A DNA stretch of 64,000 nt from Candidatus Komeilibacteria bacterium CG11_big_fil_rev_8_21_14_0_20_36_20 (GCA_002787405.1 PCWQ01000007.1:102250-166249), one strand, 5' to 3'. Counted from the stretch's first letter, positions 19,085 to 50,686 are shown. Numbers and translations are program-made. Notes: a model not told the origin generated them from the letters alone.

Positions 19085-20836
19085 TTAATTAGCTGTTGCC
19101 CAAAAAATCAACTGGCCATTTTTCTGTCCTTGCCCCGCAAAATCATCCGGTATGCTCAAAGATACATTGACTGCATCAGATAAACTAACCGGCAAAGAAA
19201 GATTGTAATTCTCCCAAAGCTCCTGATTTAAAATAGTGTGACTAGAAAAAGGATCATCGCCTAAAACACTGGCTTCAATATAAATATTTACATTACCGGT
19301 GTTGCTTAAAACCAGAATTGTTTCGGCTGATTGCCCCGGATTTAAAATGCCAAAATTAATATTAGTTTGATCAACATTAAAAGCGATCACATCGCCGCCA
19401 TGATGACCGCCGTTTTCAATATTGACTGATAAATCAACTGTATTGGAAATTCCCTGGCCAATGGTGATATATACTTTGTTACTTCTAATATATAATTCTG
19501 TTTGTTCGGCCCAGACCGGATAAACTCCTTCTGTCTCTAAAGTGACGTTAACTTGACCATTATTATCTGCTGTATAAATTGCTGAACCAACATGCACTTC
19601 CGCCTGCGGCCAAGCCAGCCAGTTCTGTCCGTCAAAATAACTAGCTGAGACAGTTAAATTATTATCATTCAAATTGGCTTCTACTCTTCCTGGATAGACG
19701 GTCAAGCCGCCATAGCCCCATAAAACACTATCGCCTGCCTCCAACTGATAATTATCAACTGAAACCATGCCGGTCTGCCAATTAACCCAATAGTGCCAAC
19801 CATTTATTCCTTCTGCCTCCAGACCATCAATCATGGTAACATACATACCGTATTCAGTTTCAATGGCCTCATATTCAAAATTACAAACCTGCGAACCGAC
19901 TGCCAACAAATCCAGCACTGTTTGCGCTTCTAAGTCACTAGCCAAACAAATAGTCTGGTCAAGCCCTTCAATGCGTAAATCAACTCCGACGGGCGTACTG
20001 CCATTTTCTAAAATAATATAATTAACAGGATAGGTGCGACCAGACAAACTTAATAGAGCATAAGCGGTCACTAAAGGAGAACCATCCTCATCAGCCGGCA
20101 ACCAAGCAAAAGATCCGTCTACTCGCTTTAAGCTGTCCATAAAAATCAATGGGTTATTTTCTCCAATCTGCCAAGTATTGACCGCCATATTCAATTTATT
20201 CAAGGCAGCAATAATCCAAGCAGTGGAAGCACCATCTGAATCACTGAATTGATCATAACCAAAACCACCGTCTTCATTCTGCACACTATGCAAATAATTT
20301 AAAGCGTTAACTATTTCTGGAGAAGAATTATCTAATCCCCCATCAACTAAAGCCATAATCGCTGCGGCCGTATCATTACTATCCGATGCTCCGCTGACTG
20401 ACCAACTCCAGCCCCCATCACTGTTTTGATGAGCTAGAATAAAATCTTTTAATAAAACCACATCATCTGTCTGATTAATCGAAGCCAAAGCCATTAATCC
20501 CCAAAAATCATCATTTAAGAGATCAGTTGATCCTAATTGTCCACTATTAAAATTACTGTTAATGGTGATGAGCAGACTTTCTAGAGACTGATAATCTTCA
20601 CTCTCCACAGCCGCTAAAGCTAAGGTATTTTTGACAGCGGTCATTAAATCGCTGGTATTAGGATTTAAATAGTCAAGATTAATATTCTCAACTTCCGCAG
20701 CCGCTAGGGCTTGGGTAATCCAAGCATTTTGGGCCTGATTTTGCAGATACTGAATAGTATCATCATATTCAGCTAAGATAATTAAAGGAGCTATTATGAA
20801 ACTCCCAATCAGCATAGAAAAAATTATCTTTTTCAT
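19085..20836 (-). CDS. Secreted protein with prenyltransferase/squalene-cyclase-like (alpha-alpha toroid) QxxDGGW repeats
   Basis: Signal peptide, then the repeats HQNSDGGWSW and VQNEDGGFGY, plus a C-terminal beta-rich region. Confidence 0.55.
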   Translation of the reverse strand: MKKIIFSMLIGSFIIAPLIILAEYDDTIQYLQNQAQNAWITQALAAAEVENINLDYLNPNTSDLMTAVKNTLALAAVESEDYQSLESLLITINSNFNSGQLGSTDLLNDDFWGLMALASINQTDDVVLLKDFILAHQNSDGGWSWSVSGASDSNDTAAAIMALVDGGLDNSSPEIVNALNYLHSVQNEDGGFGYDQFSDSDGASTAWIIAALNKLNMAVNTWQIGENNPLIFMDSLKRVDGSFAWLPADEDGSPLVTAYALLSLSGRTYPVNYIILENGSTPVGVDLRIEGLDQTICLASDLEAQTVLDLLAVGSQVCNFEYEAIETEYGMYVTMIDGLEAEGINGWHYWVNWQTGMVSVDNYQLEAGDSVLWGYGGLTVYPGRVEANLNDNNLTVSASYFDGQNWLAWPQAEVHVGSAIYTADNNGQVNVTLETEGVYPVWAEQTELYIRSNKVYITIGQGISNTVDLSVNIENGGHHGGDVIAFNVDQTNINFGILNPGQSAETILVLSNTGNVNIYIEASVLGDDPFSSHTILNQELWENYNLSLPVSLSDAVNVSLSIPDDFAGQGQKNGQLIFWATAN

Positions 20837-25410: not shown

Positions 25411-26514
25411 TTACTGCTCAAGTAAATTAAAACTATTAAGCATCATCTCAAAGGTGGTGGCAAAATGTACGCCTGATAGTTCATTAATTGTATAAACAAT
25501 CCGATAAATACGCTGATTAACCGCCATCAAAACCTCAAAACCATCTACTGATCTCAAAGCGGCTTGACCACCTAAGCTGTAATTCTCAAACTCTCCTGGG
25601 GCAAAAGCTTGCTGCCATTCAGATAAAGGTAATTCCTGTTTATTATTTTCTACTACTTCTACGCTGATAAATTCACCACTTTCTGAATCGGGTAAAAATA
25701 AAATTTGGCTTGTTTTTTCGTCAGCGGCTTGTGATATCCAAATAGTTGGCCTAAAAATACTATACCCAAAAACATTATTGCTATATTGAGTAACTAATCC
25801 TGAATCAGCCAAGAGGTCGTTAGGTGCTATGGGACTATATAAATTCTGCACCTCCATCCCGTCTTTATAGCCATCTCTATCTGTATCATCGCGACGAGGA
25901 TTGCTAGAATAGATAATCTCTTCTTCTGTAGTTAAGCCGTCTTGATCACTATCTATAACTGATTCATTCTGATTTTCATTATCATTAGCATTCTCATTGC
26001 CGTTTATATTCTGGTTGCTATTATTATTTTGGTTAGAATTCTCGTTATTATTTTGGTTACTGTTGTTATTCTGATTTTCATTATCATTAGCATTAGCATT
26101 CTCATTGCCGTTTATATTCTGGTTGCTATTATTATTTTGGTTAGAATTCTCGTTATTATTTTGGTTACTGTTCTGGTTAATATTTGTATTATTAATATTA
26201 AGCTGGTTATCCTCCACATTTTTGTTAATATACCAAACACCAAAACCAATCACACCACCGATAAACACAATAAAAATAACCCCGCCGATAATCATTTTTT
26301 TAATGTTTCTTTTTGAGTTAGTTGGCTGACCGATTAAAAATTTCTTCGGCATGATATGAATTTCGCCATCCTTAACAGGCACGCTGTTGGTATCATTTGT
26401 CTTCTTGCTTTGAAAATCATTCCCTACTAAATTATCAACCTCCAGTTGTTGGTCATTATTTTGAGATGAGTCTTGATTGAGCAAATCTCTACCATGATTT
26501 GGATTAGTAAACAT
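25411..26514 (-). CDS. Membrane-anchored N-rich repeat protein with thrombospondin-type-3-like Ca-binding repeats
   Basis: TM anchor, an Asn/Gln-rich tandem repeat region, then DSDQDG/DTDRDGYKDG DxDxDG motifs and a C-terminal globular domain. It is a paralog of 26552-27436. Confidence 0.6.
   Translation of the reverse strand: MFTNPNHGRDLLNQDSSQNNDQQLEVDNLVGNDFQSKKTNDTNSVPVKDGEIHIMPKKFLIGQPTNSKRNIKKMIIGGVIFIVFIGGVIGFGVWYINKNVEDNQLNINNTNINQNSNQNNNENSNQNNNSNQNINGNENANANDNENQNNNSNQNNNENSNQNNNSNQNINGNENANDNENQNESVIDSDQDGLTTEEEIIYSSNPRRDDTDRDGYKDGMEVQNLYSPIAPNDLLADSGLVTQYSNNVFGYSIFRPTIWISQAADEKTSQILFLPDSESGEFISVEVVENNKQELPLSEWQQAFAPGEFENYSLGGQAALRSVDGFEVLMAVNQRIYRIVYTINELSGVHFATTFEMMLNSFNLLEQ
25970..26172. 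repeat. Two tandem copies of a ~99-105-nt coding repeat
   Basis: ttctcattgccgtttatattctggttgctattattattttggttagaattctcgttattattttggttactgtt occurs twice in tandem. The second copy has a 6-nt attagc insertion. Confidence 0.8.
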
Positions 26515-26551
26515 AATTATAACTTTTTATTATTTAATTTTTTATTAATTA

Positions 26552-27436
26552 TTACTCAACTAATACTCCTTCTCCTAAAGGATTATAGCCGTTGCTTACT
26601 TCTAGGCCATCGCTATAACCATCGTCATCTGTGTCAGGATTATTAGGGTCGGTCTGCCAAATATTGATCTCGTCATAATCTGATAAACCATCATCGTCTG
26701 AATCACTTGAGGTCGGATCTGTTTTATAGGTTACTGCTTCCTCGCGATCAAACAAACCATCATTATCTGAATCAGGATTTAAAGGATCACTGCCTAATTC
26801 CTTTTCTTCAGCATTGGTTAAACCATCTGAATCATCATCCATCTCTTCCTCATTAAGAGGTGGGACATTAACATTCTCATTAAGATTAATATTCTGATTA
26901 ATCTCTTCATTAGCATTATCATTGAGATTAAAATTGGTGTTAGTATTCAAATTAACGTTTTGATTTAATTCTATGTTGGCATTATCCCCTGAGTTGAATT
27001 TACCAGTCGCAAATAAATAAATTACCACTACTACTGCTAAAGCAACCAAAACACCAAAAATTATAATAATCTTCTTTCTCATTATTCCTTCTCTTTCGTC
27101 TTTAACTACCATCTTATCAAGTGATGATGTGCTTGGTGGCGGCTGACTGGACGGCAGAGAGGTTTGAGAAATCGGCTTTAATTTGCCCGATTGCAACCCG
27201 CTTAAAGACCCTGATGCTGAAGAGACCGCCACAGGAGCTTTATCAGCCACCGGATCAACATCAGCAAACATATCGTCAATTTTACCTGAAGCCGAAACCG
27301 ATTCCATTTTTGACACTTGACCTTCTGCTTGAACTGGTTCTTTAGCTGGTTCTGAAGTTGATGATGAAGTAGTTGGTTGAGGTATTTGAAAATCAGTATT
27401 TAAATTTTGTTTACTTTGTTTTAAATCATCAAACAT
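26552..27436 (-). CDS. Membrane-anchored N-rich protein with thrombospondin-type-3 repeats
   Basis: The C-terminus has DPLNPDSDNDGLFD, DPTSSDSDDDGLSDYDE and DPNNPDTDDDGYSDGLE repeats. Confidence 0.6.
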   Translation of the reverse strand: MFDDLKQSKQNLNTDFQIPQPTTSSSTSEPAKEPVQAEGQVSKMESVSASGKIDDMFADVDPVADKAPVAVSSASGSLSGLQSGKLKPISQTSLPSSQPPPSTSSLDKMVVKDEREGIMRKKIIIIFGVLVALAVVVVIYLFATGKFNSGDNANIELNQNVNLNTNTNFNLNDNANEEINQNINLNENVNVPPLNEEEMDDDSDGLTNAEEKELGSDPLNPDSDNDGLFDREEAVTYKTDPTSSDSDDDGLSDYDEINIWQTDPNNPDTDDDGYSDGLEVSNGYNPLGEGVLVE

Positions 27437-27456
27437 AAATATAGTTTAATTTATAA

Positions 27457-28215
27457 TTACATTTCGCTTAAACAATTTTGTTTATACTCCTGGAGCGGAA
27501 TACGCGAACAAATACTAGGATCATTATCAGCTATGGCACGATTCATTAAAATAACGCTCTGGCATATCTCTTGAAAGTCATTACTGACAATAAAACTATT
27601 ATTGCAAAAATTTAAATCCTTTTGCTGGGCAATGACGCTGTGTATACAGCTCTCTTTAATCTGGTTATCAATAATATCGCCGCATAGAGAAACATTGTTT
27701 TGCTCCCTGGCTTGACTGCTGGAAACATAATCAAGACAAACATCTTTAGTCTCTGAATTACTGATTGAATGACAAAATTTCTTGTCATTTTTTTTTAAGG
27801 CAAAAGCTAAATAACAATCGTCTTCTAAATCCACCAAGCTGCACAATTCTGGATCATTAAGAATAACTACCTGCCTTAACTTAACGCCGGCCAAACATTC
27901 CTCTTTTTCTGTTTGGTTTGACAGCCTCTCGCAAGATCTCTGATATTTCAACAAAGAAAAATAATTTTCCGGCTGATCTAATATTGCCAGATCAGCTGAT
28001 GATAATCCTTCTAAAAAATCTACTTCCACAGCTTGACTTGGCTCAAATGGTTGATTATTAGTATTATTATTTGGCTGATTGACATTAGAATAAATATTGC
28101 TGTTTTCTATTGATGTATTGTTGTTACTCAGAAAAAAATAATAACTAATCCAAAAAACGCCGGATATTATTATCATGGTCAGAACGATTAAGCTAACTGT
28201 CTTACTGTGTGTCAT
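27457..28215 (-). CDS. Cysteine-rich secreted/anchored hypothetical protein
   Basis: 252 aa with an N-terminal TM/signal and about 14 Cys in a repeated pattern. It is the last-but-two gene of the surface-protein operon. Confidence 0.55.
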   Translation of the reverse strand: MTHSKTVSLIVLTMIIISGVFWISYYFFLSNNNTSIENSNIYSNVNQPNNNTNNQPFEPSQAVEVDFLEGLSSADLAILDQPENYFSLLKYQRSCERLSNQTEKEECLAGVKLRQVVILNDPELCSLVDLEDDCYLAFALKKNDKKFCHSISNSETKDVCLDYVSSSQAREQNNVSLCGDIIDNQIKESCIHSVIAQQKDLNFCNNSFIVSNDFQEICQSVILMNRAIADNDPSICSRIPLQEYKQNCLSEM

Positions 28216-28218
28216 ATA

Positions 28219-31200
28219 TTAATAATAATCATTATTAACCCAAGGGCAAAAATTATATTCAGCATCAAAGAAGAGGACGCTGGATCCTGCGCCGCCGTCA
28301 AAACTGACTTTAAAATCAATAACATTATCGCCGCTGTATTCTTCGCAATGATTAGCATTTAGAAAACCGGTGCCAATAGGAAAATCCCAAACATAACCGT
28401 CGCCATTATCATCTGAGATTGTATAAGGGACGTCATTAAGGGTAATTTTTATAGTGTCTATTGGTATGGAACCGGCAATAGACTGATACATACCTTCTAA
28501 TTCTTGTTCCGTAGTGCCGTGATAAGCTCTTTTCTTATGATTATCATTCCATTGACAAGCAGGCCCACAGCCAGCTTGACCATCACATTCTTCAAAATTA
28601 GCATAATTATTAGAAGCGCAATAAGTATGGCCATCACTGCAAGCGCCAAAAGAAGCCTCGCAATTATCTCCAGAACAATCACAAGCACTGGAAGAAATGC
28701 CATTCATAAAAGTAATTAAACTATTAGTTGTTGTTAAAGCTACAGTAAATAAATCAATGCCTGCTGTTGTTTTTAATTCATTTGCTTTAACAATAACTGT
28801 ATTGCTGGCTGTACCACCATCACTCATAAAAATAACCAATTTATTATCATAATTAGGACCGGCATTAAAAGTGTCTAAAGCCATCTGCAAAGCATTAAGA
28901 TGATTGGTACCGCCCATATTGGCAGAATAATTATTAACAATAGTCTTTAAAATATCAACCTCACCAATGTCGCGAAAATCACTATCAAGATTAGCATTAG
29001 TGCCATAGGAAACCAAAGCAATTTCAGCTATAGGATTAAGATTAAAAATAGTATCTATGGCATTGCCATCGCCGGCAATGGCTTCTCTTAAAGCACCAAT
29101 CATGCCACCCATACTGCCTGAACGATCAGAAACAAAGACAATACCCGTAGTGGCGGCTACTCCGGTGTCAATAAAGACATCAGTTAAAATATTACCGCTG
29201 ACCCGACAAGCTGGTAAATTAATAGTCGTGCTACCTCCTGGTGGTTCAAAATATCCTGCCGGAATATTACCAAAGACTACAGGTTCAATAATAACATCGC
29301 CAGCTGGCTGGCCACCTCCATTATCCCAACAAGTCCATTGACAATCATCAGTACAAACATTATCATTGTTGTCATCAACATCATCACACTCTTCTGGCTC
29401 TCCTGCCCCAAAATGTTCCTGCCTGATACCATCACCACACCAGCCACCAGTACTGGTTAAACAAGTGTCAGCACATAGATATTGTAAATCTGGACCAGAA
29501 TTTTCTGGTGTTGGCTGATCATTATAATCACTACCATCACAATATTCTTCAAATGTATTTTGACGAATATTATCGCCACACCAGCCAGCGGCTGTTGGTG
29601 TACAGCGGGTATAAACTCCCTGATCTATCCGACGGCAACAATACTGATAATATTCACTGGAATCAGGAGGATCTGGACGATTATAACCTATATTACAATT
29701 ATTAGTATCCACGTCATAATCACAAAGTTCTTCAAATTCATATTCTAAAATGACATTGCCACAGAACTCATACGTAAAAGTACAAGCTTCTGTGCAGGCA
29801 TAGGCATTGTTACTATTAGACTCGGAAGGAGTCGGCGCTTGATAACCAAAGAAATCGCATTCTTCAGCGTCATCTACATTGCCGTCTCCACAAAAACCTT
29901 CGTATGGGTCTCCGACATCACAACTTCTTTGACAACTATTGTTACAATAAATATTGCCATCCTCAGTGCAATCCCAACCATCTAAACCGTCTGGACTGCC
30001 AGTTGGGTCGCATTCTTCAGCGAGAGGAGTCCAAGTTCCATCTAAACAAGCAGTGGCTGGTGTACCATTATTACAAATTGGTTGACAAGTAATAGCACTA
30101 CAAGTTACCGGACCATTATCAGGAGCACAGCTATATTCTACGCCATTGAAATCATCTATGTTTTCAATTCTTTCACAAAGTTCATACATGGTTTCCAAAA
30201 ATCCATCGCGACAATAGCCGCCGCATTGCTCGGGAGTCAATTGTAAATCATACCAAGTACACTCTACTAGATCACAATCCCAAAATCCGGCATTGGCTTC
30301 ACAATCTGCCTGATTATCATATTGACCATCACTACAATAACAATTTAGCGCTCCAGCCGGATAACAACCCGCTCTTTGTTCATTCCACCAATCTTCAGGC
30401 CATAAAACTTCATCGCACATGTGGTCTCTAAAGTTACCGTCGCATTCTTCTCCGCCATCCACTACTCCATTGCCGCAATCTGGATCGCCCGGAAAGCCGG
30501 GATCATTATAAGTGCTACTGTCACAATAAGCGATCAAATTAGAAGAAACGCGAGGTATAGCATTAACTCCTACTGGGAACAAATTATTGGCAAAAGTAGC
30601 ACTAATATTAGGGTCAGGATCCTGATCATATTCAAAATTACTACCAATGTCATAACTCATGCCAGCTAGTAGATTATTATAAAAATAAATTAAAGAATTA
30701 AGCGGACAAGTAAACTCTAAATTATTCTCATCCCAACAAGTATCTGGATCAGCTCCTTCAGGACAACCATTAAATAAATTGATGGGGTCTATTCCTAAGC
30801 TCATATTTAAAGACTGGCCTAAAGTTTCTTGCCAAGAAGGCCAAACGCTGGTAGATATTCCAGCTACAAAGGTACCTGCATTTAATCTTGGATAATAAGG
30901 CATACAATTTCCGTTGCCCGGACATTGACCGTCATTATCACAACTAATATTACCATTATTGTCACAAGCTTTATGTAGTTGACCATATACTTCTAATAAA
31001 TCCCTTAAATCAATTAAACCCCCCAGACGCTTGGTGTCTCTTCTTAAAGCCAAACCGCGATCATGGCACCAATCCGCATTAGGACAATCAAAATCATTGG
31101 AACAATTAAGAGTTGGATCCCAATGACAAATATTATCCTCTAAATCAAGATTGATATTTAATTTAAAATTATTTACCAATTGACTGAAAATCTCCTGCGT

Positions 31201-34200
31201 CTGTAACGAAGCGCCGATATTATAAGCTAAAATGTAGACATTGGTATAAATATGATTATCAACAACATTAGTGGCAGAAACATAAATTGTATTACCGACC
31301 TGCAAGGCCTGATAACCGTTAACTTCTAAGTACTGCCCCGATTGATTTGGATTAGGGGCATAATGCTGATACCAGCCGTTGATTGATAAATGTTCAGTAT
31401 TAGGCATAATCCTAATAGCAATAACGTCTATGGACGGCTCCTCATCAGTGGCTCTAACCGTCACAATATTGGAAAAAGCTGAATTACCTGAACCATTAAA
31501 AGCAAAAATACGATAACTATAAACCTCCCCTTCTACTACAGTATCATCCGTAAATGTATCTTGGTTGGCGCCAACTGTGCCTATTTCACCCCACAAGCCG
31601 TTGAGATTGCGTCGTTGGATACCAAAACCATCTTCATCATGAGAGATATCATTCCAGCGCAACACGACCTCTTGGCTGCTGAAACTTTCATAACGCAAAT
31701 TAGTCGGAGCAGCTGGACGACCATAATCCTGTGCGCCCTGGGCTGTATCTGACTTAAATAATCGAGCTAATTTATTCCACCAAGATTGATCTACTTCTTG
31801 CTTGGCGAAAGCTAAGCTGCCTAATCTCTGATTAGCTAAATTACTTCCCTTAAAGGTTAATTCACCATTAATTAAGAAAATATATTCTTTCAAAACGCCT
31901 TCCGGAATTGGATTAGTCTCTACTGGCGGATAAGTAATATAAGGTAAACTTTCTTCATCTCCCCTTCCAGAAGACTGACAATAATAATCGGAAAAATTAT
32001 AGTCATTCTCTGCCCAAGGAAATCCTTGCAAACTAGGCCAAGGATTTTCGCATAAGAAAAGATTAACTTGAGCGCTATCATCAGCCCAGCCCTCATCAAC
32101 TGCTGAAACTATAACATTGATCACTTCAACACCATTGTCATTAAAAGGAGTGGCTTCGATCTCCTGTAAATTATCATTCTCTAAAATTATTAAATTGTTA
32201 TTAACTGACCAAAGATGATCTAATAAATTTCCATTAAGTAAAGTACCGGCAATATCATAAGTTTGAGCTAAATAAGAATGCTGATTGCCCGCCAAACCAC
32301 CATTAACGTCATTCGGGCAGTCATCTCTAGAGCAAGTGAACCAGTCTGGATCAGGATTAATGATTGTATAATTAATCTGGCAGATATGATCACCAGTAGT
32401 AAATCGCCAAGAATAACCATCTTGACCATTAATATTGTCATTATAGGTTGTTGGATCTAAAGGCAAACCATTAGCGCTCTCTACCCGTCCGTCAACAAAG
32501 ACTAAATGCTCTGTACTAGTGGCTAGATAATCAACCGGATTAAAAATAACTTCTGTCTGATCATTAATATTATCGTTATTAGAATCAAAATCGCGGAACA
32601 TAAAGCTACCATCCACTTCAATAGTTGGCGGATCATTCTGGGCATCTCCATAAATTTTTACATAATCGCGAACACTATCTCTGTCCATTACTTCGCTAAA
32701 AGTGATGCTGATGGCCGCATTAGGGCAAAAATTCATTTGCCCATCAACTGGCAGATGATCAACCACAAAAGGATTATCATATATTGGCGGTTGTTCCTCA
32801 TTAATATCTACCGTTAAAATATCACTGCCCGGCACTGTATCACCGTCTTGAGTAACATTAACCCAAATATTAGTATTACCATTATCTACCGGCGTGGCTG
32901 GTACACTCTGGAAACCAGTATCAATGGTAGCGACATTATTATCTGTAGATGACCAATCCCAGGTACAAAACTCATTACACTCTAAGGGTTGACCTCCACA
33001 AATGCCTCTATTTGAATAAGGATAAGCTGAGTAAGCTATATTATTATAATTATGAGTAATATAATTGTCCGGCTTAACTTCCACACTCTCAAACTGACAA
33101 TTTTCATTGCCTACTGTAAATTGCCAAATATGAATATTATCTAATGAATCACCATAAAGACTCTGGACATTAGTAGTGACTGTTACTTCATAACTATGCC
33201 CCAAGACCAAAGGAGTATGTTGAATAGTAACAATTCTGTCACCGCCCTCCAAGAGAGCGCCGGTAGTAATATTATTGTTAGTATTAAGATCAACAATGTA
33301 AAAATTAGTGGTATCAACCGTAACTGGATCTAATTCAGTATTAAATTCAACTCCCACAGCCGCATTATCACAAGAATCATCGCAAAATGGCCAATAATCC
33401 ATAATTAACAAATTCGGAGCCATAATAATCGGCCTAGATATATCAGTTAAATTAAAATTAGCAATAGTTGCTCTCAACTCTACATAATTAGGAATTAAAT
33501 TTTCAGTTACTCCGTCGGCAGTCAATTCTGTGCGGCCATGATGAACATTAACATTATTAATCGGACTGATGGTGGCTTGACCAGCATTGGTCGTTAAATC
33601 CCAGTTCCAATTATATTCGTCACTGCACATATTACAATTATCTGCCTGTGGTGAAGCTGTAAAATTCCGACTCTGCCCTAAATATAAATCAGCCGCCGGA
33701 CTTTGAGGAGTGACCGCAATATTAATGACTTCGCAAACATCTGTATTATCTCGAGTTCTAAAATTCCAAAAATGATCATCCGCCGGCTGCCAAGTATCCC
33801 CACCTACCTGCGAATGAAATAAACCTAAATTCACTTGATACCAAGTATTGGGCTGCAAACTATTATCTGGGGTAAAGACTACTCCTTCATGAGAGCTATT
33901 GTGGTTTACTATTTCCAAAGAACCGTTAATGGCTGTATTACAGCCAGTATTACGATTGGTGCATTGCCAGACTCTAAAATTATTTCCACCCCCCAAATCA
34001 GCGTCAACTACATCCCGAGTAAATAGCGCCACCAAACTAATGCCAACATAAGCATCCTCTGAATTATATCCGTCTAAATCATCCGGCCAAGGTGAAGGAC
34101 TTTGCAAATCATTATTACAATTATAGTTGTAATACAAACCAAATGGTTCAGCTTCAGTTTCAATCGTCCAGGAATAAATGCACTGGTTTTGTACTGGCCC

Positions 34201-36420
34201 GCAATCCACCGCGCAATAACTGCCAGTATTACCAGGACAACAAGTCTCGCCGGGATCACAATCGCTATTATTAGAACAACTACCAACTTCAAAAACCATA
34301 CTGTTGCTATCAACGCCATTGCTGTCTACAACCTTAACCGGTCCGGTGCCAGCATTATCAGGCACGGAAGTATATAAAACTTGTTGATTATTCCAAGTTG
34401 TAAAATTAGCATTTTGATTATTATAAAAGATAACTTGGCCTTGGTTGTTGCCAAAATTATCACCAAAAAAATTAACTTCCAACCCTGCCGGTCCATTATC
34501 TGGCTCCACTAGACACAAACCAGGGCCCGGCGTACCGCCGATCACATTAAACCCATATTCATTGCTGACCGCCCCGTCACTATTTCTAATAACCGTCAAA
34601 TCATAAGTATTGAGCGGAATACTAGGCACCTTAACGACTATCCGATCCGACTGCCAAAAACTGTTGCTACATTGTGGTGGAAAATCAAAATCTCCGTCGC
34701 TGTTATCAAATTTCAACTGACCCTGTACTGAACCAAAATTAGCTCCCATCACCGTAATATATTGTCCGGTCGGACCAGCTCCCGGAGAAACTTCAGTAAT
34801 AATCGGCAAGCCTTCTTCCGGCACCAAGGCCGTAAAAGGATACGGATTACTTAATTCATTATTTAATAAATTCTCCAGTTGAACACTGGCCTCACCAATC
34901 ACATTAGGAACTTCCGCTGTGGCTTCAGTCGGCGGATTAATCACATTAGTATCATAACTAGGAATCGTACCGAAAGAAATTTCAGCGTTAGGATTATTAG
35001 GAAAATTGATACCCTCAATATTAATCACATCTTCATAATATCCGGAATCGCTACTCAAACTACAAATGCCCGGACGAGTAATGCCGTTTTCATCAAAGTC
35101 AACCGCATTACTGTAATTACCATCACTAGTTAAAACATCAACTTGCCCATCAGCTACCCCGGCGGGCAGACCGATAATAATATAATCATCATGCCAATAA
35201 TCAGCCGCGCATTGGGGATTAAAGTTAGTTGGCGGCACACCCAAGATACGGTTGTTCATCGCATCACTAAAATAAACACTGCCCACCATATCACCAAAAT
35301 TATAACCAAAAATAGTCACTAAATTACCGCCAGTACCGTTGTCTGGAGAAATATAACTGATATGCGGCATCCCACCACCACTGCCTTCACAAATATTCAA
35401 AGGCCGGCAAGAATTAGAACTACAACATAAAGAAGCGCAATCATTATTGTCATTACAAGTGACGGTAAAATAATCTGAATCCGTACCGTTAGCATTAGTG
35501 ACTATAATATTACTAGATAAAGCATTAAGATCTATATCAATATCTAATTCTGTGTCTGACCAACTATTAAAATTCAAAACCACTTGCTGCTCTCCGTTAT
35601 TCCAGCTAGTCATGGTTACTGAACCATTGTCGCTAAAACCAACGCCCTCTACGCTGACGTGTTGTAAGCCAGCTGGACCAAAATCAGGATCAAGACAAGC
35701 AACATTAAGACCGGGCAAACCATCAATAATGGTAAAATTATCCGCAATCTCACCACTAGCACGATTATCACTACTCGTTAAATTAATAACATAGCCCCCC
35801 AAAGGCAAATCAAGTACTTTGGCTTTGGCCTTATGATTATTCCAAATAGGATTGCCGCCGCAAGTAACTAGCTCCGCTACATTGCCATTAAAATCAACTT
35901 GGCCGGGTAAATCGCCAAAATGCCAACCAATGATCGTAACATAACTACCCACTGTTCCTTGTTCTGGCCTAATGTCACAAATAATAATTTCATCTGGATC
36001 AGCTGGCTCTGGACAGGTGGGAATATTAGGATCATTCTGGCCATTGCCACCCTGACCGCCGCTAGTTTCTTCCACTAAAGAACTTACAATAAACCGAGCA
36101 ATGGCATAAGCGGACAAAACAATAACTAAACCAATAACTGCGCTGATCATAATAGTCTTGGCTCTTTGAACCTTATCAACTTCACCACGAGAAGTCATCC
36201 AGATAAAACCACCGTAAAGGATTAAAATAACTGCCAGAATTCCTAAAAGGCCAAGAAAGATATTAATAATACCGGCCACAGTCTCGGCAATGGGTTTAGT
36301 ACCTAACTCTGTACTAGTTAAATCATTCACCCCAAAAGGATCAGCTTGGGCAAAAACCTTATTAACCCCAATCCAGGTCAACAAGCCAGAAACTATTAAG
36401 ATGGAAAACACTCTCCTCAT
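28219..36420 (-). CDS. Giant (2733 aa) multidomain surface protein
   Basis: A single uninterrupted ORF. Domains with approximate residue positions:
- aa 1-115: signal peptide plus two TM helices;
- aa ~140-700: repeated IPT/TIG-like modules (PIITEVSPGAGPTGQYITVMGANFG etc.);
- aa ~1568-1656: FN3;
- aa ~1975-2360: CGDG...EECD cysteine repeats;
- aa ~2420-2565: VWA with a DRSGSM MIDAS motif. Confidence 0.85.
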   Translation of the reverse strand: MRRVFSILIVSGLLTWIGVNKVFAQADPFGVNDLTSTELGTKPIAETVAGIINIFLGLLGILAVILILYGGFIWMTSRGEVDKVQRAKTIMISAVIGLVIVLSAYAIARFIVSSLVEETSGGQGGNGQNDPNIPTCPEPADPDEIIICDIRPEQGTVGSYVTIIGWHFGDLPGQVDFNGNVAELVTCGGNPIWNNHKAKAKVLDLPLGGYVINLTSSDNRASGEIADNFTIIDGLPGLNVACLDPDFGPAGLQHVSVEGVGFSDNGSVTMTSWNNGEQQVVLNFNSWSDTELDIDIDLNALSSNIIVTNANGTDSDYFTVTCNDNNDCASLCCSSNSCRPLNICEGSGGGMPHISYISPDNGTGGNLVTIFGYNFGDMVGSVYFSDAMNNRILGVPPTNFNPQCAADYWHDDYIIIGLPAGVADGQVDVLTSDGNYSNAVDFDENGITRPGICSLSSDSGYYEDVINIEGINFPNNPNAEISFGTIPSYDTNVINPPTEATAEVPNVIGEASVQLENLLNNELSNPYPFTALVPEEGLPIITEVSPGAGPTGQYITVMGANFGSVQGQLKFDNSDGDFDFPPQCSNSFWQSDRIVVKVPSIPLNTYDLTVIRNSDGAVSNEYGFNVIGGTPGPGLCLVEPDNGPAGLEVNFFGDNFGNNQGQVIFYNNQNANFTTWNNQQVLYTSVPDNAGTGPVKVVDSNGVDSNSMVFEVGSCSNNSDCDPGETCCPGNTGSYCAVDCGPVQNQCIYSWTIETEAEPFGLYYNYNCNNDLQSPSPWPDDLDGYNSEDAYVGISLVALFTRDVVDADLGGGNNFRVWQCTNRNTGCNTAINGSLEIVNHNSSHEGVVFTPDNSLQPNTWYQVNLGLFHSQVGGDTWQPADDHFWNFRTRDNTDVCEVINIAVTPQSPAADLYLGQSRNFTASPQADNCNMCSDEYNWNWDLTTNAGQATISPINNVNVHHGRTELTADGVTENLIPNYVELRATIANFNLTDISRPIIMAPNLLIMDYWPFCDDSCDNAAVGVEFNTELDPVTVDTTNFYIVDLNTNNNITTGALLEGGDRIVTIQHTPLVLGHSYEVTVTTNVQSLYGDSLDNIHIWQFTVGNENCQFESVEVKPDNYITHNYNNIAYSAYPYSNRGICGGQPLECNEFCTWDWSSTDNNVATIDTGFQSVPATPVDNGNTNIWVNVTQDGDTVPGSDILTVDINEEQPPIYDNPFVVDHLPVDGQMNFCPNAAISITFSEVMDRDSVRDYVKIYGDAQNDPPTIEVDGSFMFRDFDSNNDNINDQTEVIFNPVDYLATSTEHLVFVDGRVESANGLPLDPTTYNDNINGQDGYSWRFTTGDHICQINYTIINPDPDWFTCSRDDCPNDVNGGLAGNQHSYLAQTYDIAGTLLNGNLLDHLWSVNNNLIILENDNLQEIEATPFNDNGVEVINVIVSAVDEGWADDSAQVNLFLCENPWPSLQGFPWAENDYNFSDYYCQSSGRGDEESLPYITYPPVETNPIPEGVLKEYIFLINGELTFKGSNLANQRLGSLAFAKQEVDQSWWNKLARLFKSDTAQGAQDYGRPAAPTNLRYESFSSQEVVLRWNDISHDEDGFGIQRRNLNGLWGEIGTVGANQDTFTDDTVVEGEVYSYRIFAFNGSGNSAFSNIVTVRATDEEPSIDVIAIRIMPNTEHLSINGWYQHYAPNPNQSGQYLEVNGYQALQVGNTIYVSATNVVDNHIYTNVYILAYNIGASLQTQEIFSQLVNNFKLNINLDLEDNICHWDPTLNCSNDFDCPNADWCHDRGLALRRDTKRLGGLIDLRDLLEVYGQLHKACDNNGNISCDNDGQCPGNGNCMPYYPRLNAGTFVAGISTSVWPSWQETLGQSLNMSLGIDPINLFNGCPEGADPDTCWDENNLEFTCPLNSLIYFYNNLLAGMSYDIGSNFEYDQDPDPNISATFANNLFPVGVNAIPRVSSNLIAYCDSSTYNDPGFPGDPDCGNGVVDGGEECDGNFRDHMCDEVLWPEDWWNEQRAGCYPAGALNCYCSDGQYDNQADCEANAGFWDCDLVECTWYDLQLTPEQCGGYCRDGFLETMYELCERIENIDDFNGVEYSCAPDNGPVTCSAITCQPICNNGTPATACLDGTWTPLAEECDPTGSPDGLDGWDCTEDGNIYCNNSCQRSCDVGDPYEGFCGDGNVDDAEECDFFGYQAPTPSESNSNNAYACTEACTFTYEFCGNVILEYEFEELCDYDVDTNNCNIGYNRPDPPDSSEYYQYCCRRIDQGVYTRCTPTAAGWCGDNIRQNTFEEYCDGSDYNDQPTPENSGPDLQYLCADTCLTSTGGWCGDGIRQEHFGAGEPEECDDVDDNNDNVCTDDCQWTCWDNGGGQPAGDVIIEPVVFGNIPAGYFEPPGGSTTINLPACRVSGNILTDVFIDTGVAATTGIVFVSDRSGSMGGMIGALREAIAGDGNAIDTIFNLNPIAEIALVSYGTNANLDSDFRDIGEVDILKTIVNNYSANMGGTNHLNALQMALDTFNAGPNYDNKLVIFMSDGGTASNTVIVKANELKTTAGIDLFTVALTTTNSLITFMNGISSSACDCSGDNCEASFGACSDGHTYCASNNYANFEECDGQAGCGPACQWNDNHKKRAYHGTTEQELEGMYQSIAGSIPIDTIKITLNDVPYTISDDNGDGYVWDFPIGTGFLNANHCEEYSGDNVIDFKVSFDGGAGSSVLFFDAEYNFCPWVNNDYY
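28726..29163 (-). other. von Willebrand factor A domain within the giant protein
   Basis: The MIDAS residues are present: DRSGSM...GGTN...MSDGG. Confidence 0.6.
31453..31719 (-). other. Fibronectin type III domain within the giant protein
   Basis: APTNLRYESFSSQEVVLRWND...GEVYSYRIFAFNGSGNSAFSNIVTV has the classic FN3 W/Y/AFN pattern. Confidence 0.6.
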
Positions 36421-36455
36421 TGTGTTTTGTATATTTTATTTATTCTTATTTAAAA

Positions 36456-38021
36456 TTAAACATCTGGACCTTCACATCTGGTGCCGGCTGCGCAAGGCTG
36501 AGTTGGATCCTGATCACAAGCACAGGAACCGCCCGGATCATCACAAACGCAAGGATACCAGCAATTTTGCAAAATATCCTGAATGCCGGAGGAAAAAGTA
36601 GGTGTATATTGGGTTAAAGGATCAAAACGATCATGTCTGACGCTGACGGTATTATTGTCAACCACTCTCAACCAATAATTAACCGGCAGATTAGGAACCT
36701 TAACTAAATTTATATGCTCACTGTTTACTGAGCTAGATAATAAATTTTTACTAAAAACTGCTTCTATCGGATCATCTAAAGACAAATCCGCTCCTGAATC
36801 CATAGATATAATATAAGGAGGAGTCAAATCAATGGTGTCGTTGGTGCCAAATGACCAAATATAATTATTAGCTAAACTATTACCAGCCATATCCTCAATG
36901 GCAGTAGTCACTGTTCCTGTTAAATTTTCATTACCTGGCAAACAATAAACATCACCACCACAAGAATTAACGCCACATAATTCATCAGTAATAAACTCTA
37001 CGGTGCGATATTGATTAGAAATTAGATAAGAACCATTTAAAATATTAGCCCCCGCCAACGTAATATTCTGAAAAGGAGGATAAACACCAGCCGCGAATAT
37101 TGGATTAACGGCTTCAGAAAAATTCATCTGCACTGCACTATTGCGCGGATTATTAGTAGAACCATCAACTGGTAAAACTGAAGTTACTTCTGGTGGTATT
37201 AAATCAAGTTCATTATTAACTGTAAAATACCAATCATAAAATCCAGTAAATGGAAAGGCTGGCTGACCATTGCCGGTTTCTAAATTAATCAAAACTGCTT
37301 GATATCTCATACTGCCGCCAGCATTGCCTAAATGATTATTAGGATCGTTGCCATAAGGATTTATTTCAAAAACCTGATGGTTAGCATCATATTGGACCAT
37401 TAAATCAGCACCGAGGATCACATTATCGTCTTCATCAATTAATTGAATATAGCTATCATCAATACATTCAGTGTAATTTGGATTACAACCATTGGTAGTA
37501 ACAAAATTCAGATTCATTGGCTCGTTAAAAGTAATATAAATATTAGTATTGCGCGGTATATCAGTGGCATTTCTAGCTGGATAATGATTTTCTAACACGC
37601 CGCCACCCATCCCTTGGCCACCATGGTATTGACCGCCTCCTCCTCCTCCACCAAAGAAAGCATTACCGCTTTCCCGTAAAAGAAAACGGGCAATGGCATA
37701 GGCCGATAGAATAATTACTAAACCAATCACTCCGTTGATAATAATTCTTTTAGCTCGATCAATTTTATCAGCGCTGCCCTGAGAAGTCATCCAGATAAAA
37801 CCACCATAAAGAATAATTAAGGTAGCTAAAATACCTAAAAAGCCAAGAAAGATATTAATAATACCAGCAATTGTATCCGTTAAATCCTTGGTTCCTAGGA
37901 CAGTATTATTTAACTCATTGACGCCAAAAGGATCGCTTTGCGCCATAACAATATCAGGAAACAAAAAAATAACTGCCAAAAAAATAATAAACAGGACAGT
38001 TATTTTCTTATTAATTAGCAT
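36456..38021 (-). CDS. Surface protein sharing the giant protein's N-terminal anchor module
   Basis: 521 aa. Residues 1-125 are paralogous to the giant N-terminus (SDPFGVNEL...IAGIINIFLGFLGILA...YGGFIWMTS...AKR...LSAYAIARF). A poly-Gly linker follows, and the tail is Cys-rich. Confidence 0.75.
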   Translation of the reverse strand: MLINKKITVLFIIFLAVIFLFPDIVMAQSDPFGVNELNNTVLGTKDLTDTIAGIINIFLGFLGILATLIILYGGFIWMTSQGSADKIDRAKRIIINGVIGLVIILSAYAIARFLLRESGNAFFGGGGGGGQYHGGQGMGGGVLENHYPARNATDIPRNTNIYITFNEPMNLNFVTTNGCNPNYTECIDDSYIQLIDEDDNVILGADLMVQYDANHQVFEINPYGNDPNNHLGNAGGSMRYQAVLINLETGNGQPAFPFTGFYDWYFTVNNELDLIPPEVTSVLPVDGSTNNPRNSAVQMNFSEAVNPIFAAGVYPPFQNITLAGANILNGSYLISNQYRTVEFITDELCGVNSCGGDVYCLPGNENLTGTVTTAIEDMAGNSLANNYIWSFGTNDTIDLTPPYIISMDSGADLSLDDPIEAVFSKNLLSSSVNSEHINLVKVPNLPVNYWLRVVDNNTVSVRHDRFDPLTQYTPTFSSGIQDILQNCWYPCVCDDPGGSCACDQDPTQPCAAGTRCEGPDV

Positions 38022-40244: not shown

Positions 40245-40961
40245 TTAATTATTTGTATAAACGGGCATATTAAAACTATTGATCCGATCAAGAGGCCAAC
40301 CACGCAGCCAGACTTTACCAATAATATACCCTCGGCCAACCGGACCAATCTCCCTTGAATCTTTGCTGTTAGCCCGATTATCCCCCATCAAAAAATACTC
40401 TGTCGAACCTAAAGTGACCAGAGAATAATCATCTGCTAAAAAATTTTCCACATAGGCCTCGGACAATTCTTGACCATTAACAAAAACTAAACCATCCTGT
40501 ATCTCCACTGTTTCTCCTGGTAAACCAATCACTCTCTTGATAAAATACACCTTGGGATTTTTAGGATATTTAAAAATAACTACCTCTCCCCTTTGCGGCT
40601 CGTTAAAATGATAAGATATTTCATTGATAATCAAATAATCCTTCTCATAAAAATTTGGCTCCATGGAAGCGCCTTCTACATAAAATGGTTGCACTAAAAA
40701 TAATCTGACCGGCATGATAATTGCCAGAGAAATCAAAACTACTTTGACTACCTCAAAAACCAAGAGGCCGAACTTTTTAGCCCAAATACTAACTAATCCT
40801 TCGTCCTTTTCTGAAAAATTACTTAAGTCAAAATCTTCATCTTTTAAAAAATTCTCTTCGGACTGACTGACCTCTTCCTTATTTTTGAAATTTTCTCTCA
40901 TATTGTTAGTTAAAATTAAAATATTATTGTTCATTATACACAATCTTTCTATAAAAATCAA
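40245..40961 (-). CDS. lepB: Signal peptidase I
   Basis: The S26 motifs GASMEPNF (Ser box) and GDNRANSKDSR are present. Confidence 0.85.
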   Translation of the reverse strand: MIFIERLCIMNNNILILTNNMRENFKNKEEVSQSEENFLKDEDFDLSNFSEKDEGLVSIWAKKFGLLVFEVVKVVLISLAIIMPVRLFLVQPFYVEGASMEPNFYEKDYLIINEISYHFNEPQRGEVVIFKYPKNPKVYFIKRVIGLPGETVEIQDGLVFVNGQELSEAYVENFLADDYSLVTLGSTEYFLMGDNRANSKDSREIGPVGRGYIIGKVWLRGWPLDRINSFNMPVYTNN

Positions 40962-49795: not shown

Positions 49796-50686
49796 ATGAA
49801 AAGCGATTTAAACAAGTCTAAATGGCCTTTAATTTTAGACAAAAACCAGCAAATTAACCTTAAAAACTCCCATCCCCTTCATGCCTTAGCTCAGGAATTG
49901 ATTATCAGGGGATTTTCTAGGAAAACTATCCAGAATTATCTTTCGCACAATCAAAAATTTTTAAATTTTATAAGCAAATCAGCTAAAGAAGCCCGTACTC
50001 AAGATATCAAAAGTTATCTTCTTTATTTAAAATCAAAAAATTACAGCAATACTTCGTTAAATAGCGTCATTTCCGCTTTAAAATTCTATTATCAGCAAAT
50101 TCTCAAAAGAAAGCTGTTTTTTAATATCCAAAGACCAAAAAGAGAAAAATTTTTGCCAGTTATATTATCCCGCGCTGAAATCATCAATATCATCAACTCA
50201 CCTCTCAACATCAAACACCGCTTAATCTTATCTATGCTCTATGGATCAGGACTGCGAGTATCTGAATTAGTTAAAATAAAAATTAGTCACTTAGATATTT
50301 TAGGCAAAAAATTATTTGTCAAAAACAGCAAAGGACACAAAGACCGACACACTCTTTTGAGTATTCATAGTATTCAACTTTTAAATTTATACTTAGCCGC
50401 TTTGCCCGCCTCACAATCATATCTTTTTGCCGGTACTAACTCAAAATATCATCTTAGCTCAAGAAGCGTCCAAAAAATATTGATTCAATCTCTGATTAAA
50501 AACAAAATTAATAAAAAAATAAGCTGCCACAGCTTACGTCATGCTTTCGCCACTCATTTATTAGACCAAGGAATTGATTTGAGATTAATTCAAAAACTAC
50601 TCGGTCATCAAAATATCAAAACCACTCAACACTATACTCAAGTATCCAATAAATTTTTAAACAATATCAAAAGCCCGCTTGATTAA
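49796..50686 (+). CDS. Tyrosine site-specific recombinase (XerC/XerD-like)
   Basis: Catalytic residues: R (GLRVSEL), K (KGHKDRH), HxxR (HSLRHAF), H (LLGHQN) and Y (HYTQV). Confidence 0.85.
   Translation: MKSDLNKSKWPLILDKNQQINLKNSHPLHALAQELIIRGFSRKTIQNYLSHNQKFLNFISKSAKEARTQDIKSYLLYLKSKNYSNTSLNSVISALKFYYQQILKRKLFFNIQRPKREKFLPVILSRAEIINIINSPLNIKHRLILSMLYGSGLRVSELVKIKISHLDILGKKLFVKNSKGHKDRHTLLSIHSIQLLNLYLAALPASQSYLFAGTNSKYHLSSRSVQKILIQSLIKNKINKKISCHSLRHAFATHLLDQGIDLRLIQKLLGHQNIKTTQHYTQVSNKFLNNIKSPLD

Follow-up and report, generated by a model that had tools for sequence, protein, structure and literature searches.

The gene pair and its common module

This report concerns two adjacent genes in a 64,000-nucleotide (nt) stretch of DNA from the ultra-small groundwater bacterium Candidatus Komeilibacteria bacterium CG11_big_fil_rev_8_21_14_0_20_36_20 (GCA_002787405.1 PCWQ01000007.1:102250-166249), hereafter called the window. 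Both genes lie on the minus strand, as do all of their parts described below, and both encode proteins that begin with the same module of about 111 residues. Judged by its sequence, this is a VirB2-type (PF18895) pilin module fused to an extracellular body, and that identification is the secure part of what follows. The upstream gene (36456..38021), recognized from the list of open reading frames (ORFs) and its translation, encodes a protein of 521 amino acids (aa) that we call the "medium" modular pilin (NCBI PIR07065.1 / PJC55161.1, annotated as hypothetical or Ig-like domain-containing). The downstream gene (28219..36420), recognized in the same way, encodes a giant modular pilin/adhesin of 2733 aa (NCBI PIR07064.1 / PJC55160.1). 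Only 35 nt separate them, and a promoter and terminator scan of 27-41.5 kb places no terminator in between, although the scan as a whole runs near background (57 promoter-like sites vs 53 expected; 15 terminator-like sites vs 9.7 expected). A 103-aa ORF lies antisense over the junction of the two genes (36290-36601, plus strand); it falls inside coding sequence and the short spacer of the opposite strand, and is taken as spurious.

An earlier note, made from the sequence alone, had singled out the span 36076-38021, which comprises the entire 521-aa gene and the first 115 codons of the giant, and had claimed that the N-termini of these two surface proteins align closely. BLASTP bears this out, aligning medium residues 5-115 with giant residues 2-112 without a gap at 59% identity and 80% similarity (E=6e-38); outside the module it reports only weak Ig-domain similarity between the two. 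Two HMM (hidden Markov model) searches of all six-frame ORFs of the window find these two copies of the module and no third. At the DNA level the mature modules are 73% identical, with 80, 86 and 53% identity at codon positions 1, 2 and 3 respectively, which argues that the similarity is old and selected and does not come from a recent duplication.

The layout that had been proposed for both proteins (a signal peptide, an exposed segment, a Gly-rich transmembrane (TM) helix, a basic loop, a second TM helix and an extracellular body) agrees with hydropathy, with the -3,-1 sites and with AlphaFold2 (AF2) models. In the medium protein, hydropathy and the -3,-1 rule predict a signal peptide at residues 1-27 (37941..38021) with cleavage between VMA and QS, and the AF2 model is helical at residues 5-25. 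The mature VirB2/PF18895-type pilin module then occupies residues 28-113 (37683..37940), with TM1 at 53-71, a basic loop, and TM2 at 93-111. The counterparts in the giant are a signal peptide at residues 1-24 (36349..36420), predicted by the same two indicators with cleavage between VFA and QA, and a mature module at residues 25-110 (36091..36348), with TM1 at 50-68, a basic loop, and TM2 at 90-108. In both sequences the segment after the cleavage site is acidic, exposed and about 20 residues long, TM1 is rich in Gly, and the loop between the helices carries four Lys or Arg residues. An AF2 model of the hairpin, built from a 107-sequence alignment, has one helix at 47-78, a loop at 79-83 and a second helix at 84-123, with a confidence score (predicted local distance difference test, pLDDT) above 89 over residues 50-115. 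By these three kinds of evidence, both proteins have the signal peptide, two hydrophobic helices and short positive loop that are expected of a pilin of this type. Neither has any other TM or hydrophobic segment, which makes the hairpin the sole hydrophobic anchor. The LPxTG-like motif and C-terminal hydrophobic segment that mark sortase-anchored adhesins are absent from both proteins, as is the type IV prepilin-peptidase motif (G/FTLxE, in a class III signal peptide) from the first 50 residues of each.

A Gly-rich flexible linker (residues 114-141, 37599..37682; pLDDT below 50 at residues 121-137 in the full-length model) connects the hairpin of the medium protein to its body (36459..37598). 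This body, of about 400 residues, consists of three Ig-like (Big_5) beta-sandwich domains at 143-270, 279-393 and 404-490 followed by a Cys-rich tail; the Pfam match to Big_5 has E=4e-24, and AF2 gives the three sandwiches a pLDDT above 90. In Foldseek searches the fold resembles the tandem Ig domains of LdtMt2 (L,D-transpeptidases), of the S-layer protein SbsC and of titin, and a fold search with the full-length 521-aa model returns generic tandem Ig domains only. The body of the giant (28222..36090), of about 2600 residues, begins with a Gly/Asn linker between TM2 and the remainder; Pfam matches and composition then place a TIG domain at 539-624, a Big_5 domain at 1217-1342, an fn3 domain at 1571-1655, Cys-rich repeats, and a C-terminal VWA domain at 2427-2576. 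Both bodies are acidic (that of the giant strongly so) and hold every Cys of the two proteins, 103 of them in the giant, which fits extracytoplasmic domains.

This layout suggests the first two steps of a mechanism. Each protein would be inserted through the Sec pathway and cleaved by signal peptidase I after VMA or VFA, as the sequences predict. The mature hairpin would then sit in the cytoplasmic membrane with its N-terminus outside, its basic loop inside and its C-terminus outside, an orientation that topology rules and the AF2 model together indicate with high confidence. A hairpin with both ends outside would put the acidic, Cys-rich Ig/TIG/fn3/VWA body outside the cell as well. The external location of the bodies and the removal of the signal peptide by signal peptidase I are both very probable.

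Pilin homology and distribution of the fusion

The Pfam profile PF18895, T4SS_pilin (T4SS, type IV secretion system), matches the medium protein at 35.5 bits (residues 44-114) and the giant at 34.2 bits (residues 41-111), above its curated cutoff of 26.6. In isolation the module has a PF18895 score of 39.4 bits and also passes the cutoff of PF04956, TrbC/VirB2 (29.1 bits against 27.9; E=1.2e-6). Its relatives behave in the same way: all 107 aligned relatives match PF18895, 51 of the 107 match PF04956 at E<=1e-3, and no other of the 24,736 Pfam families is matched by more than five. A further profile, NCBIfam NF045849 (Mbov_0395 family pilin-like conjugal transfer protein, from a Mycoplasma integrative and conjugative element), aligns over positions 7-78 of its 80 at 33.2 and 33.6 bits (E=3e-8 and 2e-8), below its cutoff of 40 bits; judged by sequence, both proteins are related to that family and are not equivalogs of it. 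The module also contains a near-invariant family motif, LYGGFxWMTSxG...AK, and the pattern GGFxWMTSxG..K..AK is common to NCBI-named pilins located in the T4SS clusters of other Patescibacteria. The close stand-alone relatives are likewise named "pilin" by NCBI. The homology to VirB2/TrbC that had been claimed is therefore supported at the profile level, by PF18895 for both proteins and by PF04956 for the module alone, and the matches point to pilins and not to a generic signal-anchor family. Two classical attributes of VirB2 are missing, since the proteins are 521 and 2733 aa long where a small, pilin-only size would be usual, and since they are not encoded in a T4SS operon.

The module is far from being confined to these two genes. 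An exhaustive phmmer search finds it in 29,880 cluster representatives (clustered at 50% identity; E<=1e-3). The best 150 of the 29,880 include 35 stand-alone pilins, 64 proteins in which an N-terminal module is followed by a body of 200-4170 aa, and 51 proteins with 2-17 tandem modules. When the medium body alone is used as the query it finds 165 clusters, and of the 120 listed, about 113 have PF18895 as well, even where body identity falls to 31%, which indicates that the fusion of module and body is obligate and old. Among GTDB species genomes there are at least 574 relatives of the fusion, and the earlier suggestion of a lineage-specific surface-display system is to this extent borne out.

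The arrangement as a pair is conserved as well. Eighty species loci were fetched, from Komeili-, Falkow-, Uhr- and Magasanikbacteria and their allies, and in 74 of them another gene with the module comes directly after the medium gene; its product usually has 1500 to over 3400 aa. Of the six exceptions, four are truncated by the end of a contig. The gene order signal peptidase I-HisRS-S21-YqeY-medium-giant is kept in about 64 of the 80. The exact medium protein occurs on at least 24 contigs, and both exact proteins are found on many contigs from groundwater metagenomes; one of the assemblies is GCA_002788435.1 (Candidatus Komeilibacteria bacterium CG_4_9_14_0_2_um_filter_36_13; class ABY1, Patescibacteria; 0.93 Mb). 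As a point of curation, many of the metagenome-assembled genome (MAG) records that contain this Patescibacterial cassette (L016-L095) are titled "uncultured Gammaproteobacteria bacterium", an apparent systematic mislabelling in one deposition series.

Free-standing pilins can be closely similar to the fused module. The genome GCA_018819405.1 encodes a 116-aa free pilin that is 65% identical to the module of the same genome's giant, while the medium and giant modules there are 55% identical to each other. This free pilin belongs to a four-pilin array elsewhere on the chromosome, and its flanking motifs are also common to the giant's module. In two Uhrbacteria loci a small pilin resembling the giant's module is encoded between the medium and the giant (165 aa at L089:8753-9247; 123 aa at L094:11761-12129). 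A conserved four-gene PF18895 pilin array (about 211, 106, 116 and 131 aa) is found directly downstream of an SBP_bac_1 solute-binding protein gene at L008:8919-10813 and at L014:8930-10345, with no VirB4 gene within 10 kb of either array; one of the array pilins is a near-twin of the giant's module from its own genome. The module is multiplied in the 1775-aa protein P0135 (L011:10001-15328), made up of 17 tandem VirB2/PF18895-like hairpins and encoded on a contig with archaeal markers (ribosomal protein L39e, Csa1/Cas4). We know of no described role for poly-pilin proteins.

Probable pairing of the hairpins, a possible pilus and alternative readings

The hairpin is the better conserved part of these proteins. 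Orthologues are 51-82% identical over the hairpin vs 27-61% over the body, and the hairpin value is the higher one in every pair. There is also a relationship between the two proteins of one genome: across 75 genomes with medium/giant pairs, the mature module of a medium protein has 60% identity to that of the giant from its own genome and 44% to those of giants from other genomes (Wilcoxon p=6e-13). This within-genome excess peaks in the exposed N-segment (47% vs 25%) and does not extend to the signal peptide. As far as sequence comparison can tell, the medium and the giant are conserved as an interacting or co-constrained pair. Because the mature parts co-evolve within each genome, a third step can be proposed, in which the two hairpins act together by touching each other or one common partner. 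The co-evolution is statistical and the meaning we give to it is an interpretation, but we lean towards the view that the two hairpins would work together. For the first three steps taken as a whole, that is, for modular VirB2-type pilins with their bodies outward and their hairpins paired, our confidence is moderate.

A fourth step is the most speculative. The VirB4-type machinery of the genome would draw the modular pilins from the membrane, along with free PF18895 pilins, to form a short pilus or tip complex, and the bodies would there supply the adhesin that is otherwise apparently absent from Patescibacterial T4SSs. Incorporation into a T4SS-dependent pilus or tip complex is plausible and unproven, and we consider it rather unlikely on present evidence. 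The more specific proposal, that the pair nucleates or caps a T4SS-type pilus of free PF18895 pilins, which would make these the first VirB2-family pilins with an adhesin of their own, is put forward just as tentatively. A membrane hetero-complex with some other role takes the remaining probability.

The pilus step does fit several observations. All conjugative pili solved so far consist of pilins whose two ends point outward (bioRxiv 10.64898/2025.12.18.695078), an arrangement that would display a body fused to the C-terminus. The reported state of Patescibacterial T4SSs, without VirB5- or PrgB-type adhesins, fits as well, and so does the free-pilin twin of the giant's module in one genome. 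VirB2-like pilins are widespread in Patescibacteria and essential in Southlakia (PMC12102498; PMC10633639), the one species tested, where the T4SS is essential as well. The assembly GCA_002788435.1, which carries these exact proteins, is flagged VirB4-positive (a yes/no flag) in Table S1 of Quinonero-Coronel et al. 2025 (PMC12102498), and the T4SS would then lie elsewhere in the genome.

Other observations weigh against such a pilus, or against the pilin assignment itself. The window is ordinary chromosome, with genes for ribosomal proteins, EF-G/Tu, FtsA/FtsZ, HisRS, PheRS, GyrB and ComEC and with nearly all genes on one strand, and the pair is located among these housekeeping genes and not in a T4SS locus. 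A Pfam scan finds no VirB4, VirB6 or other T4SS gene in the 59 ORFs of the window, nor is there one in the 10 kb past either end; the flanks of the 80 species loci contain no T4SS genes and housekeeping genes only. The secretion partners that the earlier note had proposed to look for are found at the level of a VirB4-positive assembly, and not in the window or within 10 kb of it. No VirB2-type pilus has been seen in Patescibacteria, where the thin filaments of Mycosynbacter are an Ig-fold "Pam" pilus (bioRxiv 10.64898/2026.03.03.709456). On a subunit of a tightly packed five-start filament, a body of 2600 residues would find steric room only at the tip or at very low stoichiometry, and co-evolution of the modules would also be expected if the hairpins merely pair in the membrane. 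As for the assignment, the full-length proteins score 24.6 and 16.6 bits on PF04956, under its cutoff of 27.9; a profile search of PDB sequences gives no match; and fold searches with the hairpin return no specific match to solved pilins (TraA, VirB2, TrwL, TrbC), a two-helix hairpin being a fold that does not discriminate, and do not contradict the assignment.

The alternative that survives best is that the hairpin is derived from a pilin and is now a permanent anchor. The hairpins would pair in the membrane, and the two proteins would form a fixed envelope or surface-coat pair (an Ig-like stalk with a giant adhesin or S-layer-like protein) that has no part in a T4SS or a pilus. We give this a substantial chance, if one short of even. 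The pair is part of a syntenic core cassette that runs through LytR-CpsA-Psr, signal peptidase I, HisRS and YqeY and then YbeY, DAGK, FtsA and FtsZ, with no T4SS locus, and even the closest stand-alone pilins are likewise not beside VirB4. The likeness of the medium body to the tandem Ig domains of SbsC and of L,D-transpeptidases agrees with a role in the envelope, as does the hairpin's standing as the only hydrophobic anchor of both proteins. What sits less easily with a hairpin reduced to anchoring is that the module is better conserved than the functional bodies, that it has retained the near-invariant pilin family motif, that the giant's module has a near-twin in a free-standing pilin of its own genome, and that the co-variation is strongest in the exposed N-segment, which is dispensable for anchoring.

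It is also conceivable that the within-genome similarity of the modules reflects repeated gene conversion between adjacent paralogues and has no functional meaning; the genes are, after all, tandem and co-oriented. Synonymous sites make this unlikely. At identical residues the codons are identical in 48.5% of cases vs 42.0% expected, with a median observed/expected ratio of 1.13, and the pair in the window itself has 35 identical codons vs 30.6 expected and a third-position identity of 53%. The adjoining signal-peptide codons, moreover, are not homogenised. Since synonymous sites are near random in most genomes, the match between modules would be kept mostly by selection or by old gene conversion. 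Recent gene conversion was rejected on the same grounds as the sole, general cause of the similarity; it explains a few lineages, in which identical codons are in excess (observed/expected 1.4-1.7 in L029, L043 and L018) or the modules are near-identical (L028 and L043). Last, convergence, in which a generic signal peptide and two-TM anchor would draw spurious profile matches through its hydrophobic composition, could appeal to the sub-threshold PF04956 scores of the full-length proteins, to the lack of a PDB match and to the lack of any tblastn match of the mature module in 72,556 plasmids (where the TM helices were probably masked by the low-complexity filter), but it is very improbable given that three independent pilin profiles (PF18895, PF04956 and NF045849) match over the whole length, that PF18895 and PF04956 alone among the Pfam families are widely matched, and that the conserved motif held in common with pilins of Patescibacterial T4SS clusters is not a hydrophobic one.

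Taken as modular VirB2-type pilins, the two proteins can be set beside several known systems. Like VirB2/TrbC/TraA pilins (PF04956), they have a cleavable signal peptide, two helices, a short basic loop and both termini outside. Canonical pilins of this kind measure about 70-120 residues, frequently undergo cyclisation or acetylation, and have their genes within T4SS operons, whereas here there are bodies of about 400 and 2600 residues and a housekeeping location. Among type IV pilins, the modular pilins of Streptococcus sanguinis, PilB with a vWA module and PilC with a lectin module, display these modules on a filament composed mainly of small pilins. By analogy the logic would be the same here, a polymerisation module joined to a bulky adhesive domain, and the giant also ends in a VWA domain. 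Type IV pilins differ in that they belong to another pilus superfamily and combine a class III signal peptide with only one helix, at the N-terminus, and no prepilin motif occurs here. The VirB5 tip adhesin and PrgB have the role that is proposed here, that of an adhesive element of a T4SS surface structure, without any sequence relationship to these proteins. VirB5 is soluble and helical and PrgB is LPxTG-anchored, while in the present pair the part responsible for anchoring or assembly is a pilin domain, without LPxTG.

Small VirB2-like pilins and pilin arrays of Patescibacteria have been published (PMC10633639, PMC12102498, PMC12857230), and the present pair resembles these arrays in its family (PF18895), in its phylum, in the tandem adjacency of its module genes and in the presence of VirB4 in the assembly. 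With an array defined as two or more PF18895/PF04956 genes in tandem or one gene apart (PMC12102498), two genes 35 nt apart are one, although an atypical member of the class. Published arrays consist of small pilins with a mean identity of 25% (maximum 54%), often near virB4 (PMC12102498); here the modules are 59% identical, carry adhesin-type bodies and are located away from virB4. That survey treats VirB2 as a small protein and reports that it detected no adhesins such as PrgB (PMC12102498). Homologues of VirB5 and PrgB are reported absent from Patescibacteria. The Pam pili of Candidate Phyla Radiation (CPR) bacteria are, like the structure considered here, CPR-specific and built of Ig-like domains (bioRxiv 10.64898/2026.03.03.709456), but their pilins use donor-strand exchange and chaperones with C-terminal TM helices, lack a hairpin of the VirB2 type, and are found mostly in Saccharimonadia and Microgenomatia (bioRxiv 10.64898/2026.03.03.709456). 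A literature search, incomplete and without subscription journals, found no paper that describes pilin-adhesin fusions, the conserved pair or the concerted evolution of its two members; the domain combination itself is already visible in precomputed Pfam annotation.

Patescibacteria rely on host-cell contact, yet their T4SS has no known adhesin or tip protein. A pilin module attached to an Ig-like/VWA giant is a concrete candidate for this missing adhesive element, in the form of a co-evolving pair found across hundreds of ABY1 species. If the pair does cap a pilus, it would be a functional counterpart of the VirB5 tip adhesin for the monoderm ABY1 Patescibacteria and would explain how the T4SS makes contact with the host. 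If the hairpin is only an anchor, it would represent a lineage-wide way to mount very large surface proteins without an outer membrane. On either reading, there are targets to test in how an uncultivated class attaches to its hosts. A practical consequence is that fused forms may be missed when VirB2 pilins are filtered by small size.

Neighbouring genes and other features of the window

A signal peptidase I gene lies four genes upstream of the pair (40245..40961, minus strand; Pfam Peptidase_S26, E=9e-46), and its product is a candidate processing enzyme for the two proteins. The TTG start called for this gene at 40961 probably lies too far upstream, since versions of 218 or 229 aa are called in other assemblies and the start is overlapped by a promoter-like site. 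Downstream of the giant are three single-pass membrane proteins of 252, 294 and 367 aa (25411..28215, minus strand), two of them with bacterial thrombospondin-type-3 Ca-binding repeats (Pfam TSP3_bac). The three have Asn-rich low-complexity spacers, their homologues are often found 3' of the giant in other genomes, and they may belong to the same surface module.

A 583-aa protein encoded at 19085-20836 (minus strand) combines a prenyltransferase/squalene-hopene-cyclase-like alpha/alpha toroid with DUF4430, which is unusual for a reduced genome; its counterpart in a related genome (L007) is 594 aa long and occupies the same position. Among the few plus-strand genes of the window is a tyrosine recombinase (49796-50686), with Phage_integrase and SAM-like N-domains. 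GC skew is negative in all 2-kb bins of positions 1-64000 and the cumulative skew falls monotonically, with the genes almost all on the minus strand; this places the window inside one replichore, without an origin or terminus.

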